Made by a program: the position numbers and the translations under genes. Below the pieces are notes generated by a model. That model worked only from the letters and a program-made list of their open reading frames with translations, did no database searches and was not told where the DNA came from. This document shows positions 4,098 to 49,098 of a stretch of DNA of 64,000 nucleotides, piece by piece. The stretch comes from an uncultured delta proteobacterium (GTDB lineage: Bacteria > Desulfobacterota > Zymogenia > Zymogenales > Zymogenaceae), in NCBI GenBank assembly GCA_963792965.1, contig CAWBYW010000007.1, positions 256,001 through 320,000 on the forward strand, written 5' to 3'. The number at the start of each line of letters is the position of its first letter. Within the stretch, counting starts at the first letter, position 1.

Positions 4098-5528
4098 TTA
4101 ATCCTGTTTCTTCGCCGCCCCGAGCATCTCCCAGAGAGGTCCCCTGATTCCCTGCATCCTGAACGGCGCGCCGAGCCCGCGATCGTATCGGTCGGGCCGC
4201 ATCGTCCCTGTAAAATCCTGTCCTGCCATGACCATCTGGCCCGGAACAAGCCAGTAGGGGCGGCTCATGGCGCGCTCATGGACAAAAGAGACGACCTCGT
4301 CTGCCACCGACGGGGCGATGTAGAATATCGGGGAAAGGCCGATATTTCGCGCCTCGTCCATTCCCTCTTCCACCGCCAGCCTCTGGAGGCCCGTTCCCGG
4401 AAAGATCCTGATGCCCACCATGGCGTGGTGCGCCGTAGGGGAGAGTTCGTCGACCAGGTCGGCCGTCTCCCGCATTGTTTCGGGGGTCTCTCCCGGGGCG
4501 CCGAAGATGATATTGAGACAGGTCATGATCCCGACCGAGTGGGCGATCCTGACCGCGCTCACGACATCGTCCCGTGTGAAGTTCTTGCCGAGCCGCACAA
4601 GCACTGGGTCGGTCAGGCTGTCGGCACCGAGGTCGACACCGGCCAGCCCGGCCTCGGCGAGATCCTTCAAAAGTCTTTCGGTGATAAAGGCGGGCGAAAA
4701 ATAGGCCGAGAGACGCACTTTAAGGTGCCTCTTGATTATTTCTCGAGCGATCTGTTGCGCGTGCTCGGGCGGGTTGTTGAAGACGCTGTCGACGATAAAG
4801 AAGCTGTCCACTCCCCACTGCTTGAGCGAGAGCTCTATCTCGTCGACTACCGCCCTCGGCTCCCTTACCCTCACCAACCTCCCTTCGACCACGGGATAGG
4901 TGCAATAGATGCACCCGAAGGGACAGCCCCGTTTCGTCTGCACGCTCCCCATCCCGCCCCATTTCAGATATGCGGCGTTGTCGCAGAGGTCACGGGCGGG
5001 GAGCCCGATCGCGTCGATATCGGCGATCGCCTTAGGACGATTTCGAATCACCGTATTACCGTCCTTCATCGCGATCAGGCCCGGGACACCGCCGACGTCT
5101 CTCTTCTCAGAAAGCGCACTGATGAGCGCTACGATTGCCTCCTCACCGTCCCCGACGATGCCCATGGTCTCCGCGAGGGCCGAAAGCATCTGTTCCGGCA
5201 TCATGGTGAAGCCGGATCCGCCGAGCACCACGGGTCCGGTAAACGCCGCCCTGATGGCCCGCATCATATCGATAGTGTCGTCCATATAAGAAACGGAGAG
5301 CGGGTAGGCCACATTGTCGATATTGCGGATCGACACACCTACCACGTCGGGACGAAACGAGCCGATCTTCCGAGCTATTGCGTCGTGTACGCTGTCCGCA
5401 AAGCAGACATCCAGCATATCCACAACGTGCCCGGCTCCCCTCGCAGCCGCGGCCACGTAGGCCGCCCCGAGCGGATAGACCGGGTCCGGCGTCACCTCCC
5501 TGTTCGCAGAAACGATGAGTACCCTCAT
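4098..5528 (-). CDS. B12-binding radical SAM protein (lipid-biosynthesis-associated type)
   Basis: PVYPLGAAYVAA, SIRNIDN, LGGSGF B12 domain; TKRGCPFGCIYC; DSVFN; GIRIFPGT. Confidence 0.85.
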   Translation of the reverse strand: MRVLIVSANREVTPDPVYPLGAAYVAAAARGAGHVVDMLDVCFADSVHDAIARKIGSFRPDVVGVSIRNIDNVAYPLSVSYMDDTIDMMRAIRAAFTGPVVLGGSGFTMMPEQMLSALAETMGIVGDGEEAIVALISALSEKRDVGGVPGLIAMKDGNTVIRNRPKAIADIDAIGLPARDLCDNAAYLKWGGMGSVQTKRGCPFGCIYCTYPVVEGRLVRVREPRAVVDEIELSLKQWGVDSFFIVDSVFNNPPEHAQQIAREIIKRHLKVRLSAYFSPAFITERLLKDLAEAGLAGVDLGADSLTDPVLVRLGKNFTRDDVVSAVRIAHSVGIMTCLNIIFGAPGETPETMRETADLVDELSPTAHHAMVGIRIFPGTGLQRLAVEEGMDEARNIGLSPIFYIAPSVADEVVSFVHERAMSRPYWLVPGQMVMAGQDFTGTMRPDRYDRGLGAPFRMQGIRGPLWEMLGAAKKQD

Positions 5529-20186: not shown

Positions 20187-21849
20187 TTATTTCTTGCCGG
20201 GGGTATATCCCTCCACCGTCACATCCGAAAACACCTTCTTGATATTTCTTGTCGTATCCGATTCGAGGAGATCTCCGGAAGGATCTTTCTTTTCCGAGAC
20301 CATCGGTACCTCTTCGCGCTCGGGCCCCTCATAGTGACCCCCTTCGACGCCGACGAGAGAAACCGCAAGCTCCCTCTTGAAATATTCCCGAAATTCGCTC
20401 TTGATCTTATCGAGCTTTCCCTGTCCCCCGATCAGGTGGGTATACTTTTGAGGCATCTTAATGACGACGACGTCCTCTTCGATATCGATCGAAACCGCGT
20501 GTATCAAGTATGAATGCGTTATCGGGTCCTTTCCGACGAGATAGGAAAGGAACGCCTTTATGCTGTCGGCAGAATTCGCATCCTTCTTTTCCTCACCGAC
20601 AGCCTCTTTTCCCTGCTCGGCTTGCACGGTCGGCGCCCGCTGTGTGCCCACCGGGGCCTGTGAGAAGTCAAAAGAGAGGGCCTTCGTATCAGATGGCGGT
20701 ATATCAAACGCCTTCATGTCCAGTCGGGAGAGCCTCTCGATCGCCTCCGCTATCGGCTCGACGTAGCCCATGCGGGTCATCTTGATGAGAAGGAGCTCCA
20801 TGGCGATTCGCGGGTCCGTGCTGGTCCTGATCGAAAACTCCGCCGAAAACAGGACATTGAAGATCAGCGTCAGCTCGTCGAGCGTGAGGGCGTTTCCGAT
20901 CTCGGTGAGCTCCTGTCGTTCCTCGGCCGTGAGGTCCGGCGTCGATATCGTGGGGGCCGCCTTTATGAGGAGCTGGTTTCGCATCAGGTCTACCAGCTCT
21001 CGGTAGTACTGGGCGATGTCATACCCCTGGTTATACACGTCGGACAAAAGATAGATTGCCAAGGACGCGTCCCGCCCCGCCAGCGCCGCCACCATCTTGA
21101 AAAGGAGGGAGCGGTCCGTCAGCCCTAACACCTCACGAACGGCCTCCTCCCCCAGCGTTGCCCCGGAGTAGCCGATTACCTGATCCAGGAGGCTTTGGGC
21201 GTCGCGCATGCTTCCCCCCGCCTCCCGCGCGATCACCGAAAGGGCGCCGCCCGATACCGCAATCCCCTCTTTTTCGGAGATTTCCAGGAGTCTCTTTTCG
21301 ATCTCCACGGCGCTGATCCTCCGAAAATCGAAGCGCTGTGTCCGCGAGAGGATCGTGATCGGGATTTTATGAGATTCGGTCGTCGCGAAATATAAAGATT
21401 ACATGGGACGGCGGCTCCTCGAGTATCTTGAGCAGCGCGTTGAAGGCGTTGATGGACAGCATGTGGACTTCATCGATGATGTAGATATTGTAGCGTCCCG
21501 CCGACGGCAGGTAACGGACGTTTTCCCTGAGCTCCCTGATATCGTCGACGCCCGTGTTCGAGGCCCCGTCGATCTCATAGACGTCGGTAACGCTCCCGTC
21601 GGTGATGCCTTTGCACATGGCGCATTCGTTACAGGGCTGGGGCGTCGGACCTTTTTCGCAGTTGAGCGCCTTGGCCAGGAGCCGCGCGACGGTGGTCTTC
21701 CCGACCCCGCGCGGGCCAGAGAAGAGATAGGCATGCGCGATCCTTCCCAGCGTGATCGCGTTTTTCAGCGTCCGGGTTACGTGCCCCTGGCCGACTACCT
21801 CTTCAAAGGTCTGCGGCCTGTATTTTCTCGCGATTACAAGGTATGACAT
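20187..21849 (-). CDS. dnaX: DNA polymerase III gamma/tau; apparent +1 frameshift near 21389
   Basis: [24 protein letters not shown]; deleting one T from ATA TTT CGC restores [23 protein letters not shown] and joins ORF 20187..21308. Confidence 0.93.
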
Positions 21850-21870: not shown

Positions 21871-21978
21871 TGTGATAGCTAGGCGCCCCTGCGGCACACA
21901 GAGAGGACCTCTACCGCTGCTTCCTTCCGGACCTGACGGGGTTTGAGGACATCTATTGCACAGGACCCAGCTATCACA
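21871..21978 (-). ncRNA. ffs: SRP 4.5S RNA
   Basis: GTCAGGTCCGGAAGGAAGCAGC domain IV; long closing stem extends to about 21863-21986; lies upstream of dnaX. Confidence 0.93.
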
Positions 21979-22001
21979 GATATCCGCTTTGTGGCAGGTA
22001 G

Positions 22002-22092
22002 TGGCGGAGAGAGTGGGATTTGAACCCACGGTGCGTTATTAGCGCACACACGATTTCCAATCGTGCTCCTTAAGCCGCTCGGACATCTCTCC
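22002..22092 (-). tRNA. tRNA-Ser(GGA)
   Basis: GGAGAGA..CACGA-TTGGAAA-TCGTG, long variable arm, ends TCTCCGCCA. Confidence 0.96.
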
Positions 22093-22119
22093 ACTATTGA
22101 AACTGTGAGCTCTATATCC

Positions 22120-22213
22120 TGGCGGAGAGGGTGGGATTCGAACCCACGTGGGAGGTATAAGCCCCCAAGCCGATTTCGAGTCGGCCCCGTTACGACCACT
22201 TCGGTACCTCTCC
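22120..22213 (-). tRNA. tRNA-Ser(CGA)
   Basis: GGAGAGG..GCCGA-CTCGAAA-TCGGC, long variable arm, CCA end. Confidence 0.96.
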
Positions 22214-22222
22214 ATTGATACC

Positions 22223-22741
22223 CTATCGTCGCTCGAGAAAGAACCTGGTAAGGAGCAAACGTGCTTCCTCCTCAAGAACCCCCGCCGTCACCTCAACCCG
22301 GTGATTGAGCCGGGAATCTCCGAGGGTCTTGTAGAGAGAATCGACCGCGCCGGTCCTCGGATCGCCCACCCCATAGTAGAGACGCGCTATCCGCGCCTGC
22401 AGGATCGCCCCCGCGCACATCAGACACGGCTCGGCCGTTACATAGAGGTCAGCGCCCGCCAATCGGTAGTTCCCGATCCCGGCCGCCGCTTCTCGGAGGG
22501 CAATGATCTCGGCGTGCGCCGTCGGATCGGAGGTGGCGATCACCCGGTTTGCGCCCCTCCCGATGATCTTACCATCCATAACCACCACCGCGCCGATCGG
22601 GACCTCACCGTCTGAAAACGCCCTTTCGGCCTCCGCGAGGGCTGCCCTCATGAACTGGGCCGGATCCGAACGGTGCGTCTTTCCCGAGCCCGTAAACGGT
22701 GCGCCGCGCCCTTTACCTTTCCCCATTTTGTCAATGAACAA
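22223..22741 (-). CDS. tadA: tRNA adenosine(34) deaminase (start uncertain)
   Basis: [29 protein letters not shown]. Confidence 0.93.
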
Positions 22742-22874
22742 CGTGGCTAATCTTTTTATTATAGCACAAATCTCATTTTTTTCAACTGAAACTTCAGTAC
22801 CATCTTTGGGACGCCCACGGCCGTCTCACGCCTCACCGAAGTAACATAAATCTGCCCATATATCGAGGTCTAAA

Positions 22875-22952
22875 TGGTGCGCCCGGCAGGATTTGAACCT
22901 GCGGCCTACAGATTCGTAGTCTGGCGCTCTATCCGGGCTGAGCTACGGGCGC
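22875..22952 (-). tRNA. tRNA-Arg(ACG)
   Basis: GCGCCCG..CAGA-CTACGAA-TCTG..GGTTCAAATCC..GGGCGCACCA. Confidence 0.95.
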
Positions 22953-23194: not shown

Positions 23195-23344
23195 TCAGAC
23201 GTAATAGCGCGGCAACATGGAGGGAAGCGCCTTGATCTGCTGGCGCAGAAATATTTTTTTCGGCTTGCTCATCAACAGGTATCGGAGCCATCCCAAAAGG
23301 CCGAGCCCCACGATAACGGCAACGATAATCAATAGGACCTTCAT
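23195..23344 (-). CDS. 49-aa membrane microprotein, copy 2 (not in ORF track)
   Basis: MKVLLIIVAVIVGLGLLGWLRYLLMSKPKKIFLRQQIKALPSMLPRYYV; SD AAGGAGG; 32/49 identical to the copy at 24930..25079. Confidence 0.85.
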   Translation of the reverse strand: MKVLLIIVAVIVGLGLLGWLRYLLMSKPKKIFLRQQIKALPSMLPRYYV

Positions 23345-23357
23345 ATATCCCTCCTTC

Positions 23358-24863
23358 TTACTTTTCGTATTTTCGAATGAGCTCTTGTGCGATGATCGAT
23401 GAACAGATGACCGTCGGTACCCCGCCCCCCGGGTGCGTTGACGCCCCCACGAGGTAGAGCCCCTCGATACTCTTGGACTTGGCCGACGGGCGGAAGACGC
23501 CCGAGTGTCCCATGTCCTGGGCCAGGAGGTAGATGCCCCCCTCGGGGGCCAGGAGATCCCGCTCGAAATCCCTCGGCGTCCCGAGCATGGCCACCTCCAC
23601 GTGATCTTTCATCCCGGGCAGATAGGTGCGGTCAAAATAGTCGACATACTGTTCGGTCATCCTCTCCTTTTCCTTGTCCCAATCGGTCCCCGCAAGATGG
23701 TACGGCCCGAATAACGTCATCACAACCGTGTGGTGCCCCTTGGGCGCCATCCCGGGGTCCGAGTGGGTCTTCCAGCTGATGAGGCCCACCTGTCGGTCCG
23801 GCATCCGCTTTTCGATATTCATCTGATCATAGAAGAGATCGAATTCCTCGGGGGTCGCGGTCATGACGGAATGATGCGACTTAAGAGGGGGCGCCGTGTC
23901 AAGCCCGAGAAAGAACATAAGGGCAGACGGGGAGCTCTTCAGGCTCCTGACGCCACGGCGTGCCATCGGTCCGAGATGCTCCAGCCCGATCAGGTCGGTA
24001 TAGAGGGTTTTCGCGCTGATGTCGGAGACGATCACGTCGGCCGTTATGGATGTCCCATCGGCAAGCACGACCCCGCAGGCCCTCTTGTTTTTCACGATAA
24101 TCTTCTTTACAAGCATCCCGGTACGGAATTCCATGCCGGCCTTTTTGCTCACCCTCAGGATTGCCTCGGGGATCGCGATGAGGCCGCCTTTGCTATAGTA
24201 GAAGTCGTTGTGCTCGTTCCAGGGGAGTATAGAAAAGACCCCGGGGACAAGGGTGGGCGGCATCCCCATGAATGTCCCCTGGAAGCAGAGGATCTCCCGG
24301 ATAACGGGGTGTTTAAAATATTTATCCATCACCATCTGGTAGCTCGAGCCGAATAGTGCGCGATACTTTAAAAGCTTCGGCTCTTTTATGAACATGCCGA
24401 ACATGTCACCAAACGTGATCATCGGGGAATAAAAATAGGCCGGGATTACGCCGCTGAAGAAGTCCTCCATGTCGGCGGCATACCGAAACCAGCTCTTGGC
24501 GTCCTTGGGTGAAAGCTTCTTGAACTCCTCGGCTACCGCCTGACTGGAGGCCGGGTACGTAACCTCTGTCCCGTCCTTCAGGATATAGGTGTAGACCGGG
24601 TCTATGGGAATCAGGTCTACCTCCTTCGCAAGCGATGTTCCCATCCGCACAAAAAACTGGTCGATCACGTGCTCCATCTCGATGATGGACGTACCCACGT
24701 CAAACCGGTAGCCCTTGTGCTCGAAGGTGGAGCAAAACCCCCCGATCCGTTTGTTTTGCTCCAGTACGAGCGTCTTTCGGCCGTCTTTAGCCATGAGCCC
24801 GCCGAGGGAGAGACCCGCAATACCCCCCCCGATCACGATCACGTCATAGTCAGACATGCTCAC
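23358..24863 (-). CDS. CrtI/phytoene-desaturase-family FAD oxidoreductase, copy 2
   Basis: VIGGGIAGL Rossmann motif, GYRFDVG, KGGL, LYLVGASTHPGGGVP. Confidence 0.9.
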   Translation of the reverse strand: MSMSDYDVIVIGGGIAGLSLGGLMAKDGRKTLVLEQNKRIGGFCSTFEHKGYRFDVGTSIIEMEHVIDQFFVRMGTSLAKEVDLIPIDPVYTYILKDGTEVTYPASSQAVAEEFKKLSPKDAKSWFRYAADMEDFFSGVIPAYFYSPMITFGDMFGMFIKEPKLLKYRALFGSSYQMVMDKYFKHPVIREILCFQGTFMGMPPTLVPGVFSILPWNEHNDFYYSKGGLIAIPEAILRVSKKAGMEFRTGMLVKKIIVKNKRACGVVLADGTSITADVIVSDISAKTLYTDLIGLEHLGPMARRGVRSLKSSPSALMFFLGLDTAPPLKSHHSVMTATPEEFDLFYDQMNIEKRMPDRQVGLISWKTHSDPGMAPKGHHTVVMTLFGPYHLAGTDWDKEKERMTEQYVDYFDRTYLPGMKDHVEVAMLGTPRDFERDLLAPEGGIYLLAQDMGHSGVFRPSAKSKSIEGLYLVGASTHPGGGVPTVICSSIIAQELIRKYEK

Positions 24864-24929
24864 CTCTGCATATGGTGTTTGAGTTTCACTTTATCTTTTC
24901 GCGCCTCCCGTATCCGTCCGCTTTCATGC

Positions 24930-25079
24930 TCAGACGAAATAGCGCGGCAGCATAGAGGGCAGCGCCTTCAGCTGCTGCCTGAGGAAAACCTTCTTGGCTT
25001 TGCTCATAAAGAGATACCGGATAAACGCCAAAAGGGCGAGTCCCGCGGCCACCACAAGGACGATCCATACGGTTTTCAT
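24930..25079 (-). CDS. 49-aa membrane microprotein, copy 1
   Basis: MKTVWIVLVVAAGLALLAFIRYLFMSKAKKVFLRQQLKALPSMLPRYFV; SD GGAGG; it is the C-terminal part of track ORF 24930..25376. Confidence 0.85.
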   Translation of the reverse strand: MKTVWIVLVVAAGLALLAFIRYLFMSKAKKVFLRQQLKALPSMLPRYFV

Positions 25080-25101
25080 CTTTTCCTCCATCCAGTCTCG
25101 T

Positions 25102-26589
25102 TTATTCGTGTTTCTTGATGAGGTCGGCCGCGATAACCGCCGATGCCATTGCCGCGGGAACCCCGCCGCCGGGATGCGTCGAGCACCCGACAAGATAGAG
25201 CTGTTTGATGCTCTTTGACTTGGCCGCGGGCCTGAAGATAGTCGAGTGGGCCAAGTCCTGTGAAAAGAGATAGATGCCGCCCTGCGGGGCCATAACCTCC
25301 CGCTCAAAATCCTTCGGTGTGCCGAGGAAAGCGACCTTGACGTGATCCTTGATCCCGGGCAGATAGGTCTTGTCAAAATAGTTGATGTACTCCTCCGTCA
25401 GCGGTCCCTTGATCTCATCCCAATCCGGACGGTATGCCCCCCCGATGGTCAGGACGAGGGTGTGATAGCCCTTCGGCGCAAGGGAGGGATCCGAGATTGT
25501 CTTCCAGCTGAAAAGCCCGAACTGCTTCTTAACCACAGTTCCTTTTGAGAGTATATTGAAATAGAGATCGTCGATATCCTCCGGCGGCACGGTCGCAATG
25601 GTGTGATGGGACTTAAGCGGCGGCGCGGCATCGAGTCCAAGGAACATCATGAGGGCCGAGGCCGATATCTCGAGGCTTTTGACCCCCGCCCGCGCCATCG
25701 GGCCAAGGTGCTCAAACCCTATCAAATCCGTATAGAGGGTCTTGGCCGAGATGTCCGATACGACGACGTCGGCCGTGATCGATGTACCGTCGGCGAGGAC
25801 GACGCCGCACGCCTTCTTGTCCCGTATGATGATCTTCTTGACGAGCGTGCCGGTCTTTAGTTCCATGCCGGCGCTGCGCCCCAGTCGCTCGATCGCCTTC
25901 GGCACCGATATCAATCCGCCCTTGCAGTAGTAAAAACCCGTGTGCTCATTATAGGGGAGCATCGTCATGATGCCGGGCGCCAAGGACGGCGGCAGCCCCA
26001 TGAAATTGGCCTGAAAACAGAGGGCCTCGAGTATCCGGGGGTCCTTGAAGTATTTCTCCATTACCGTCTGGTAGCTGGTGGCAAAGAGCGGCAGATATTT
26101 CAGGAGCCTCGGGCTCTTGACGAACATCCCGATCAAGTCCTTGAAGGTGAGCATCGGAGAGAAGAAGAACGTGGGCACCGCCGCGTCTATGAAACCTTTC
26201 ATGTCCTCGGCGTACCGGAACCAGCTCCTGGCGTCGTCGGGAGAGAGCTTCTTGAACTCCTCGGCGACCGCCGCAGAAACGGCCGGATAGCGGATCTCGG
26301 TCCCGTCCTTGAGAAGATATGTGTAGACCGGATCAAGGGCAATCAGATCCACTTCCCGAGCGGTAGTCGTCCCCATGAGCGTGAAAAAGCGGTCGTAGAC
26401 CTCCACCATCTCGATAATCGAGGTCCCGATGTCAAACTGGAAGCCGTCGTGCTCAATGGTCGAGCAGAAACCTCCGATCCGTTTGTTTTGCTCCAGCACG
26501 AGGGTCTTTCGACCGTCCTTGGCCATAAGGGCGCTGATAGAAAGGCCGCCGATCCCGCCTCCGACAACAATGACATCATAATCGGCCAT
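25102..26589 (-). CDS. CrtI/phytoene-desaturase-family FAD oxidoreductase, copy 1
   Basis: MADYDVIVVGGGIGGL after AGGAG; LYLVGCSTHPGGGVP; clear paralog of 23358..24863. Confidence 0.9.
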   Translation of the reverse strand: MADYDVIVVGGGIGGLSISALMAKDGRKTLVLEQNKRIGGFCSTIEHDGFQFDIGTSIIEMVEVYDRFFTLMGTTTAREVDLIALDPVYTYLLKDGTEIRYPAVSAAVAEEFKKLSPDDARSWFRYAEDMKGFIDAAVPTFFFSPMLTFKDLIGMFVKSPRLLKYLPLFATSYQTVMEKYFKDPRILEALCFQANFMGLPPSLAPGIMTMLPYNEHTGFYYCKGGLISVPKAIERLGRSAGMELKTGTLVKKIIIRDKKACGVVLADGTSITADVVVSDISAKTLYTDLIGFEHLGPMARAGVKSLEISASALMMFLGLDAAPPLKSHHTIATVPPEDIDDLYFNILSKGTVVKKQFGLFSWKTISDPSLAPKGYHTLVLTIGGAYRPDWDEIKGPLTEEYINYFDKTYLPGIKDHVKVAFLGTPKDFEREVMAPQGGIYLFSQDLAHSTIFRPAAKSKSIKQLYLVGCSTHPGGGVPAAMASAVIAADLIKKHE

Positions 26590-26763
26590 GTCTCTCTTCT
26601 CCTGTCTATGAATAGATAAATTTGAGCGTCTTGCTCTAAAATCCCGCCACCGTTTCCTCGGACTATGACCGGCACACCGTCGAATTGATCGCAATCCGAG
26701 CATCGTCCGCCCGAAAGCCCCTTCCCTGAGCATCCTGTGCTGTCGGCTGCTACAAGTCTTTCT

Positions 26764-27405
26764 TTACAGACGCGCCTTCTCGTTGTCTCCCTGTGGTTTG
26801 ATAAGCGCCATGATCATCACTTTAAAATAGGCGAAAAATGACGCGGTATCGGTCGCCTCCCGCGCTATGGAATAGGACATGGCAAATCCGTTGGCCATCG
26901 CCAGCATGATCGAGGCAAGAACATCCTCGTCTCTATCGAGCGAAAATTCTCCATCCTTTTTCGCCCGTCGAAACACATCGGCCGTCAGCTCCTTGATATA
27001 GACGTGCTGGGAGAATATCTCCTCTTTTCGCTTCGGGTTTTGGAGGCCAAGTATCGTCAGCTCCATGACGACGGTGAACCAATTGGGGTTCTTCTGTATG
27101 AACGTGTGAAATGACTCGATGAGCAGGTCGATTCTTTCTCCGATGGGAAGGGGCGCGTTCAGGACGGAAAGGGCGATATCGAGATATTCCGACATCGCAA
27201 ATCGGTAAATCTCACCGACCAGCTCATCCTTGTCTTTGAAATAGTAGTGGAGAAGCGCCTTGCTGATCCCCGCCTCACCCGCGATATCGGACAGCGAAAC
27301 GTTCACAAAGCCCTCGCGTCCCATGATGTTATAGGCTGATCGTATAATCGCCTGCACCCGCTCGGGTCTTTGACCTTTTTCTTCTTTTATGGCTTTCTGG
27401 GTCAT
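26764..27405 (-). CDS. TetR/AcrR-family regulator
   Basis: SLSDIAGEAGISKALLHYYFKDKDEL helix-turn-helix. Confidence 0.93.
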   Translation of the reverse strand: MTQKAIKEEKGQRPERVQAIIRSAYNIMGREGFVNVSLSDIAGEAGISKALLHYYFKDKDELVGEIYRFAMSEYLDIALSVLNAPLPIGERIDLLIESFHTFIQKNPNWFTVVMELTILGLQNPKRKEEIFSQHVYIKELTADVFRRAKKDGEFSLDRDEDVLASIMLAMANGFAMSYSIAREATDTASFFAYFKVMIMALIKPQGDNEKARL

Positions 27406-27433
27406 GATAGTGATCCTCGTCTTGGTCCTGAAG

Positions 27434-27459
27434 TTCCTGACTGGCCGGCCGATCAGGAA
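27434..27459. promoter_or_regulatory. Palindrome, candidate TetR operator
   Basis: TTCCTGA-CTGGCCGGCCGA-TCAGGAA just downstream of the tetR promoter. Confidence 0.6.
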
Positions 27460-27470
27460 TTGACGTGCTA

Positions 27471-27499
27471 ATGGTAATAAAGACCTGCCTCCATGTCAA
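27471..27499 (-). promoter_or_regulatory. sigma70-type promoter for tetR
   Basis: TTGACA-17 nt-TACCAT. Confidence 0.65.
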
Positions 27500-48133: not shown

Positions 48134-48499
48134 TCAGAAATCGGCGTCAAAGGCGTTTGGGATTAGCTTTACCCTCGGAATGAATCCGACGAGGTCCACC
48201 GCCACCACGTCGAAACGACAGGCCGTATCGCCGGTCCCCGCGCGCTGTGTGAGGTAGATGAGGGCCATCTGCGTAAGCTTCCTTCTCTTTTTCTCATCGA
48301 CCGCTTCTTCCGGCGGGCCGTACTCGGCCGACTTCTTCGTCTTCACCTCCACAAAGACCAGATCGTCCCCGTCCACAGCTATGATGTCGATCTCGCCGTA
48401 TCGCGTGCGGTAGTTTGTCTCGATAATGCGGTAGCCGGCCAGCATGAGCCGTATCCGGGCGATCCGCTCCCCGAGCCTCCCTTCCCTATTGCGCTTCAC
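48134..48499 (-). CDS. yraN: YraN-family nuclease
   Basis: G..GE..A, NYRTRYGEIDII, LVFVEVK, RFDVV. Confidence 0.92.
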   Translation of the reverse strand: MKRNREGRLGERIARIRLMLAGYRIIETNYRTRYGEIDIIAVDGDDLVFVEVKTKKSAEYGPPEEAVDEKKRRKLTQMALIYLTQRAGTGDTACRFDVVAVDLVGFIPRVKLIPNAFDADF

Positions 48500-49098
48500 G
48501 GATGACCTCCTTCACGCCCGAAAAAGTCCGTCGGTGGATGGGACACGGCCCGTGTCTTTGAAGCGCGGCAAGATGCTCCGCCGTCCCATAGCCCTTGTTT
48601 TGCGCGAAGTTGTATTCGGGGTATTGACGGTGATATTCGCGCATGATCCGATCCCGTGTGACCTTAGCCACGACGGAGGCGGCCGCGATAGACGCCGACC
48701 TCCGGTCCCCCTTGATGAGCGCGACGTGGGGGATGTCGGACGGAAAGCCGTACCCTCCGTCCACAAGGACGAGATCGAACGCGGACCGTAGTCCCTTCAC
48801 CACCTCCTCCATCGCCACAAGAGATGCCCTGAGGATGTTGATTCGGTCTATCTGTTCGTGGTCAACGCCGGCCACCCTCCATGCCACTGCTGCGCCCGTG
48901 ATCTCGTCATAGAAGCGCTCCCTGAGCCTCGGGGGTAAGCTCCTTTGAGTCTCTAAGCCCTTCTATTCGCACCCCCCTCGGCAGCACCACCCCGGCCGCC
49001 ACCACCGGGCCGGCCAAGGGTCCCCTGCCCGCCTCATCCACCCCACAGAGGCGCGCGAACCCCTCAGCATAGAACTGCTCATCAAAACGGAAAAGCAT
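48486..49098 (-). CDS. rnhB: Ribonuclease HII; apparent +1 frameshift near 48933
   Basis: [19 protein letters not shown], then [34 protein letters not shown]; one C fewer gives [12 protein letters not shown]. Confidence 0.92.

Follow-up and report, generated by a model that had tools for sequence, protein, structure and literature searches.

Why would each of two adjacent genes that resemble phytoene desaturases be followed by a minute open reading frame (ORF)? The question is raised by a window of 64,000 nucleotides (the whole stretch of DNA that we analysed: contig CAWBYW010000007.1, positions 256,001 to 320,000, of assembly GCA_963792965.1) from an uncultured delta proteobacterium of the Zymogenaceae. 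On its minus strand lie, in this order, a gene for a TetR-family regulator, a gene for a CrtI-family enzyme dependent on flavin adenine dinucleotide (FAD; enzyme A), a gene for a microprotein (w1), a second such enzyme gene (enzyme B) and a second microprotein gene (w2); their coordinates are collected in Table 1. Comparison of gene neighbourhoods indicates that enzyme and microprotein are a conserved two-gene unit. On balance we favour, if by no great confidence, the explanation that the two products form a two-subunit, membrane-tethered CrtI-type flavoenzyme, in which the tail of the peptide docks on, orients and stabilises the enzyme.

The genes are tightly packed. From the stop codon of enzyme A to the start of w1 there are 22 nt, with the Shine-Dalgarno sequence GGAGG before w1, and from the stop of enzyme B to the start of w2 there are 13 nt, with GAAGGAGG in the same role. 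Pairwise alignment of w1 and w2 gave 32/49 identical residues, unevenly spread: 24 of the 29 residues at positions 21-49 are the same and 8 of the 20 at positions 1-20. The two enzymes share 330/498 residues (66%). Since the enzyme pair and the peptide pair are both paralogous, the unit that was duplicated is enzyme plus peptide. The ORF of enzyme A is open to 26733, and the ATG at 26589 agrees with the N-termini of all homologues and with a 495-aa database entry (P0005); enzyme B has an alternative GTG start at 24863, two codons upstream of its ATG. No further operon gene lies downstream of w2.

The nucleotide differences between w1 and w2 are concentrated at third codon positions (22/42), as are those that separate either from the orthologous peptide of a syntenic locus in another genome (L001), and the ratio of non-synonymous to synonymous change (dN/dS) is 0.20 for w1/w2, 0.27 for w1 against the L001 peptide and 0.08 for w2 against the same peptide. 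In the tail (codons 21-49) the proportion of changed non-synonymous sites (pN) is 0.10-0.13 across the three comparisons, and that of synonymous sites (pS) is 0.74-0.81 in two and 0.35 in w1/L001; for w1/w2 the figures are 0.10 versus 0.74. The third-position excess and the low ratios mean that the peptides are more than chance ORFs and, by this pattern of substitution, are encoded by genuine genes on which selection acts. An earlier note on this DNA, made from its letters, had described two CrtI-family paralogs, each followed within about 25 nt by a 150-nt ORF with a strong Shine-Dalgarno sequence, had given the same counts of identical residues overall and in the tail, and had read selection from them; the measured gaps, the alignment and the substitution ratios (dN/dS 0.08-0.27) bear all of this out.

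Table 1. Features of the duplicated cassette and of the DNA upstream of it (positions in the window)
Feature	Position	Strand	Remarks
TetR-family regulator gene	26764..27405	-	213 aa; PF00440 TetR_N, E 3.4e-12, 46.4 bits vs cut-off 24
CrtI-family FAD enzyme A	25102..26589	-	495 aa; TIGR02734 308.9 bits; PF01593
Microprotein w1	24930..25079	-	49 aa; hydrophobic N-terminal segment and basic C-terminal tail, end RYFV
CrtI-family FAD enzyme B	23358..24857	-	499 aa from ATG; TIGR02734 322.6 bits
Microprotein w2	23195..23344	-	49 aa; paralogue of w1, end RYYV
Promoter-like site TTGACA-17-TACCAT	27471..27499	-	upstream of TetR gene; consensus scan 10/12
Palindrome, 13-nt arms, no spacer	27434..27459		between promoter-like site and TetR start; 85% complementary

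The pairing is also found in other genomes. Genome contigs were scanned with an enzyme profile (A1) of 34 homologues, and the best 80 matches of at least 612 matching stretches were reduced to 69 loci. In 21 of them (L001-L020 and L022, hereafter clade loci) the identity of the enzyme to enzyme A is 37% or higher; the remaining 48, which carry more distant CrtI-like genes or fragments, served as controls. Small ORFs ending in ...P..P.RYF(V/I/A) were found by inspection of downstream ORFs and by their C-terminal pattern, and 14 of these seeded a hidden Markov model (HMM) with which the six-frame segments from the window and the 69 loci, 20,941 in all, were searched. At E ≤ 1e-6 there were 21 matches (down to 1e-23), 7 of them outside the seeds: two in the window and 19 distributed over 17 of the 21 clade loci. 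None of the 48 control loci has a match, the next-best hit being at E = 3.3. Within these enzyme-selected loci, the HMM check of adjacency that had been proposed in the earlier note came out in favour of the link.

Nineteen of the 21 peptide genes are co-directional with a clade enzyme and within about 85 nt of it, 16 downstream and 3 upstream (L003, L013 and L020, 10-21 nt before the enzyme); the remaining two lie 3 kb downstream (L006) and divergent from the enzyme (L010). Gene order changes while adjacency is kept, which argues for a functional pair. The peptide is spread over Desulfobacterota-like, Chloroflexota, Spirochaetota and Actinomycetota metagenome-assembled genomes (MAGs), and the hosts are mostly anaerobes. 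A phylogenetic tree unites the 24 clade enzymes in one group (Shimodaira-Hasegawa-like approximate likelihood ratio support, SH-aLRT, 98) to the exclusion of 9 controls, and peptide carriers stand on each of the two deep branches of this group. Enzyme B and the sole enzyme of L001 share 86% of their residues, and enzyme A is sister to both. The cassette has been duplicated independently in L014 (4154-7722) and in L019 (5941-11065), with a peptide of its own beside each copy. No third gene is conserved across the 21 neighbourhoods.

Some details of individual loci are worth recording. The first enzyme copy of L014 has a very long branch and an odd C-terminus, and may be frameshifted. Genes for iron-sulfur (Fe-S)/CCG-domain, ferredoxin-like or flavodoxin proteins occur in about 8 of the 21 clade loci; we did not count them as evidence, such genes being common in anaerobes. 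Two Actinomycetota MAGs carry an 881-882-aa fusion of a CrtI-like amine-oxidase domain, an FNR-like FAD/NAD reductase module and a 2Fe-2S ferredoxin domain (L006:999-3647 and L012:1338-3983). The fusion genes adjoin an NMO/FabK-like gene (in L012 also one for a beta-keto acid cleavage enzyme) and are located just upstream of the clade enzyme; their architecture hints at NAD(P)H as the electron source of related enzymes.

How large is the peptide family? A single-sequence search with w1 returned 4 matches, w1 included and w2 absent; the family came into view only with a profile. A peptide profile (A2) of 24 sequences was run against a collection of 5.8 billion proteins and against a representative library of 1.84 billion. 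In the former it matched 234 clusters at E ≤ 0.01; the 120 of these that were listed are unnamed or called 'hypothetical protein', one bears the JGI label 'YxeA', and none has a Pfam domain. In the latter it matched at least 116 clusters (50% identity) at E ≤ 0.001, with representatives of 27-125 aa, and nearly all of the 116 are matched at their C-terminal end. The sequence ends in R-[Y/M]-x-x in 111 of the 116, and a hydrophobic segment precedes the tail in 106. The invariant Arg and near-invariant Tyr stand three and two residues from the free C-terminus.

Known families offer no match. Pfam and NCBIfam gave nothing for w1 and w2 at E ≤ 0.01, and scattered matches below the cut-offs for all 24 aligned peptides at E ≤ 0.1. 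A profile search of the PDB with the peptide gave 0 matches, and the ESM Atlas no usable one. Fusions of peptide and enzyme were not seen either: the tail motif stands at the end of 0/120 enzyme matches, and no peptide representative among the 116 examined exceeds 125 aa. We found no description of the peptide partner or of the enzyme clade in literature listings, which reached mainly journals outside subscription; this agrees with the earlier note, whose author knew of none.

The enzymes themselves can be placed with more certainty. Both score above the curated cut-off of TIGR02734, the phytoene desaturase family (238.1 bits; Table 1), and above that of PF01593 (70.5 and 82.8 bits versus 19.8). 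Neither reaches an NCBIfam equivalog cut-off: the best score is 232 versus 640 for CrtID, and the others are 176 versus 580 for CrtD, 134 versus 587 for CrtISO and 111 versus 1000 for CrtO. The N-terminal GxGxxG-type motif DYDVIV(V/I)GGGIxGL and the C-terminal FAD motif G(A/C)STHPGGG are both invariant in the 34-sequence alignment. An AlphaFold2 (AF2) model of enzyme A alone has a mean predicted local distance difference test (pLDDT) value of 89.3, and a Foldseek search with it placed the structures 4rep (template modelling score, TM-score, 0.83 normalised to the query) and 4dgk on top, i.e., the three-domain fold of CrtI; the profile E-values of the enzyme to these entries are 4.3e-64 and 6.7e-80, respectively. 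Reading the alignment by hand, we find that a His-His pair aligned with CrtI H322/H323 and an Asp aligned with D149 are retained, and that the residues aligned with R148 and R152 are changed. The FAD-binding motif is the sole hydrophobic stretch of the enzymes, which have no membrane segment.

The enzyme is a CrtI-family member outside every characterised carotenoid equivalog. Its surroundings agree: an NCBIfam scan at E ≤ 1e-10 of the window's 59 remaining ORFs with 90 aa or more, many of which matched no family, found no phytoene/squalene synthase or polyprenyl synthase, which upholds the remark of the earlier note that crtB and crtE are missing nearby, and a Pfam scan of the 21 clade neighbourhoods found no carotenoid-pathway genes. 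Desaturation, saturation, isomerisation and hydration are all conceivable as the reaction, and the substrate could be a lipophilic compound.

What, then, might the peptide do for such an enzyme? In w1 and w2 the N-terminal segment has a hydrophobicity peak of 2.5, and the tail holds 7 Lys or Arg and 0 Asp or Glu. The positively charged flank of a membrane helix faces the cytoplasm (the positive-inside rule). Given this rule and the charge of the tail, the peptide would be single-pass, with its N-terminus outside and its C-terminus inside, and its tail would lie in the cytoplasm, where the enzyme is.

Complex prediction joined the two. Enzyme A (with the A1 alignment) and w1 (with the A2 alignment) were modelled in three runs, with three controls; the interface score ipSAE was 0.83, 0.83 and 0.84, and that of the best control 0.01. 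This mark is reached by 116/157 solved complexes and by 2/215 mismatched pairs. Partner pLDDT is at least 78, and contacts agree by at least 92% between runs. The check by complex prediction that the earlier note had listed is thereby answered in its favour, as far as a model goes. It is unlikely that the model remembered a solved complex, because the peptide profile has no relative in the PDB, and 4dgk and 4rep, the entries closest to the enzyme, each hold a single chain. Confident contacts come from peptide residues 27-49 only, with the tightest at residues 42-49; the helix makes none.

On the enzyme A side, the contacts lie at residues 150, 172-176, 202-204, 283-307, 337, 341 and 446-461 (numbers for enzyme A in contacts, conservation, alignment and pLDDT blocks are the true residue number plus 1, as the reference sequence, 25105-26592, starts a codon ahead of the ATG). 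Transferred by hand to Pantoea CrtI, these correspond to F147, 165-169, 194-196, 276-300, 330-332 and 441-456. According to the accessible part of the CrtI structure report, the helical 'membrane-binding' domain includes helices 147-152 and 161-171, F147 is a pocket residue, and segments 275-302, 331-343 and 426-455 are too disordered to be seen in crystals of the apo form (PMC3382138). The same text expects most of these regions to close over the FAD site once FAD is bound and the enzyme associates with the membrane, forming helices near 276-282, 291-298 and 442-457; it shows FAD binding and membrane association of CrtI to be one concerted process and presents the enzyme as monotopic and membrane-peripheral (PMC3382138). 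In the AF2 model of enzyme A alone, the blocks of lowest confidence are 441-450 and 451-460 (pLDDT 59 and 65), the same segment that takes part in the interface. The tail is predicted by the model to sit on the membrane-facing, lid-forming face of the enzyme, and the binding of enzyme and peptide is likewise a prediction of the model.

We hypothesize the following arrangement. The large subunit would be a soluble FAD protein of about 495-499 aa and the small subunit a 49-aa single-pass membrane peptide. The basic tail of the latter would dock on an enzyme face built of the helical 'membrane-binding' domain and of the lid helices that are disordered in apo-CrtI. In this way the peptide would tether the enzyme and orient its substrate entrance at the surface of the cytoplasmic membrane. 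It would probably also stabilise the lid that covers FAD, so that it may be a structural or activating subunit and not an anchor alone. Lid stabilisation and membrane tethering, like control by TetR (see below), are parts of the scheme that we infer.

Several observations weigh against this arrangement. Five of the 116 representatives have no segment able to span a membrane by length and hydrophobicity, and are short, with a poly-lysine head; two Dehalococcoidia peptides (L004:7518-7607 and L007:7518-7601) are likewise of 27-29 aa and consist of a poly-lysine head and the tail, with no transmembrane (TM) segment. Variants that lack the TM segment and retain the tail imply that the tail has a role beyond anchoring and that tethering by a TM helix is not universal. 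The coding of the peptide is read from sequence, and its binding from a model alone. Custom alignments, unpaired, went into the complex prediction, whose calibration is only rough, and the mapping to CrtI was made on the profile alignment without model coordinates. Mean conservation is the same at the interface and elsewhere in the enzyme (0.62 versus 0.62; 4946/10000 random position sets scored at least as high), and interface residues agree with the control enzymes slightly less often (0.21 versus 0.29). The loci were chosen through the enzyme, so that the counts run from enzyme to peptide.

In the DNA examined, no peptide was found in 4 of the 21 clade loci (L005, L009, L012 and L018), which also weighs against the arrangement, and two of these are short or cut contigs: the enzyme of L005 is cut by the contig end, and the whole contig of L009 has 6,996 nt. 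In the tree, the sister of each of L009, L012 and L018 is a locus that has its peptide gene somewhere other than directly after the enzyme gene, and the peptide of these three may therefore sit beyond the DNA examined.

The proposal of the earlier note that the microprotein anchors or activates the enzyme has to be amended accordingly: the two-gene unit, the hydrophobic, anchor-like segment and the predicted binding are in its favour, and anchoring would not be the whole role, given the variants without a TM segment. We put forward a stronger version of the two-subunit enzyme as a tentative conjecture. The microprotein would be an obligatory subunit whose tail orders the FAD lid and forms part of a membrane-facing entrance for substrate or electron acceptor; the pair would then be the first heteromeric CrtI-type enzyme, and would stand for a widespread and new class of flavoenzymes that modify lipids in anaerobic bacteria, with a chemistry other than carotenoid desaturation.

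Alternatively, the peptide could be a regulator or gate instead of an anchor: a tail at the rim of the substrate entrance would inhibit or gate the enzyme until the substrate or the state of the membrane displaces it. The interface does include the residue aligned with F147, a listed pocket residue of CrtI in the accessible part of PMC3382138, and the TM-less variants that keep the tail point to a separate function for it. However, only 1 of the 31 interface residues, the one aligned with F147, maps to the listed pocket, and a co-operonic peptide with a strong Shine-Dalgarno sequence beside enzyme copies, retained through independent duplications, resembles a stoichiometric subunit. We regard a gate as improbable.

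A further reading makes the peptide the substrate of the enzyme. The flavoenzyme would modify the C-terminal Arg-Tyr-Phe/Tyr-x of a precursor, as happens in pathways to ribosomal peptides or peptide-derived cofactors. It is true that the most conserved residues stand at a fixed distance from the C-terminus, in the R-[Y/M]-x-x end of 111/116 representatives, and that residues 42-49 make the tightest predicted contacts. Against this, a membrane-like hydrophobic segment takes the place of a soluble leader in 106/116, which is atypical of precursors, and a protease, a transporter or a second maturation enzyme is conserved in none of the 21 neighbourhoods. The contacts, moreover, are mainly with the lid and the helical domain, off the pocket residues that the accessible part of PMC3382138 lists for CrtI. 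A precursor role is thus a long shot in our judgement. That the small ORFs are not functionally protein-coding, being chance ORFs or sites of coupling or regulatory translation, has next to no probability: their coding status is known from sequence alone and w2 was passed over by gene finders, but the amino-acid sequence is conserved across several phyla (HMM E down to 1e-23) at dN/dS 0.08-0.27, no operon gene follows w2 and the peptide lies upstream of the enzyme in 3 loci as against downstream in 16.

Regulation of the cassette may be a local matter. The TetR protein reaches no NCBIfam equivalog cut-off. The -35 region TTTTCTTGACAT of the promoter-like site, which is a consensus match only, is kept in L001, as is the core of the palindrome (about 5260-5285 there) amid a diverged spacer. 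The palindrome is, by its position and conservation, a candidate TetR operator; the spacer between the TetR gene and enzyme A has no inverted repeat, so that no second operator candidate exists there. A promoter-like site and a palindrome conserved in a diverged spacer suggest autoregulated transcription of the whole operon: the tandem-duplicated cassette would probably be co-transcribed with the upstream TetR gene and repressed by TetR through the palindrome. The earlier note had placed the cassettes under a TetR gene. This holds for the window, where TetR heads them, and does not extend to the family, since TetR-type genes lie near the cassette in 5/22 loci (the window, L001, L015, L017 and L019); the conserved unit thus excludes TetR, which was added locally. 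In L015 (4792-5778) and L017 (378-1283) the regulators fuse MerR-type and TetR-type DNA-binding domains, and the L015 gene is directly upstream of the cassette.

How does the pair compare with known systems? Monoamine oxidases A and B belong to the same Pfam family, PF01593, and appear as distant matches in profile and Foldseek searches. In monoamine oxidase a C-terminal helix anchors the flavoenzyme in the membrane. That anchor is in the same polypeptide, whereas the anchor of the cassette would be a separate 49-aa gene product, with no fusion seen. CydX of cytochrome bd and AcrZ of AcrB are peptides of less than 50-60 aa with a single hydrophobic helix, encoded in the operon of their partner and often missed by annotation. 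The cassette peptide resembles them as a short single-helix peptide encoded beside its partner and conserved with it (19/21 adjacent here). CydX and AcrZ bind integral membrane partners helix to helix; unlike these, the predicted contact here is of a soluble tail with a soluble enzyme. What sets the pair apart from known anchored flavoenzymes and small subunits would thus be an anchor with a gene of its own, docked by a soluble tail as the model predicts.

Nearer relatives are CrtI of Pantoea ananatis (4dgk) and the gamma-carotene desaturase CrtD (4rep), which have the family and fold of the enzymes described here and share with them GxGxxG, the C-terminal G[AS]STHPGGG and the His-His pair (H322/H323). 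Unlike CrtI, the enzymes of the cassette are below the equivalog cut-offs, have no crtB/crtE in the window, carry changed counterparts of R148/R152 and come mostly from MAGs of anaerobes. CrtI also differs in that the accessible part of its structure report names no microprotein partner (PMC3382138). Has, the hydroxy-archaeol synthase of Methanosarcina, is described in the available portion of a preprint as a hydratase of the phytoene desaturase family that acts on archaeol precursors (bioRxiv 10.1101/2025.10.20.683597). By that partial account, the reactions of CrtI-family enzymes in anaerobes can extend to non-desaturase chemistry, in this case hydration, on isoprenoid lipids of the membrane. 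Has is not an orthologue of the cassette enzymes, and that portion of the preprint mentions no microprotein partner for it (bioRxiv 10.1101/2025.10.20.683597). The sole Methanosarcina match in the PDB, 3ka7, covers a short stretch (E 4e-12).

CrtI-family enzymes matter to biotechnology. The membrane attachment and the ordering of the FAD lid of CrtI are obscured by the disorder of the apo crystal, as far as the accessible text tells (PMC3382138), and a clade that has placed part of the lid and membrane job on a separate, conserved peptide of 27-80 residues would be a natural handle on this problem of attachment. Beyond this, a microprotein family that had no annotation, of at least 116 clusters at 50% identity, gains a clear partner, and the 'phytoene desaturases' of non-carotenogenic anaerobes, a large group, are flagged as mis-named lipid enzymes.

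Some minor observations on the window remain. Between the cassette and dnaX (21874-22952, minus strand) lie a small signal recognition particle (SRP) RNA (21874-21972), two tRNA-Ser genes (22002-22092 and 22120-22213), a tadA-like deaminase ORF (22741..22223) and a tRNA-Arg gene (22875-22952). The dnaX gene itself (minus strand) is broken at 21308-21400 into the ORFs 21849..21367 and 21308..20187: a one-base frame change follows ...HVIFI, the expected sequence resumes in the other frame, and L001 has an intact dnaX of 553 aa. The split is likely an assembly error, a one-base insertion or deletion in a T-run, with no biological meaning. Elsewhere, the RNase HII ORF (48486-48887, minus strand) matches rnhB models only from profile position 61 to 186 of 188, roughly their C-terminal two thirds, which may reflect another frameshift or a wrong start.

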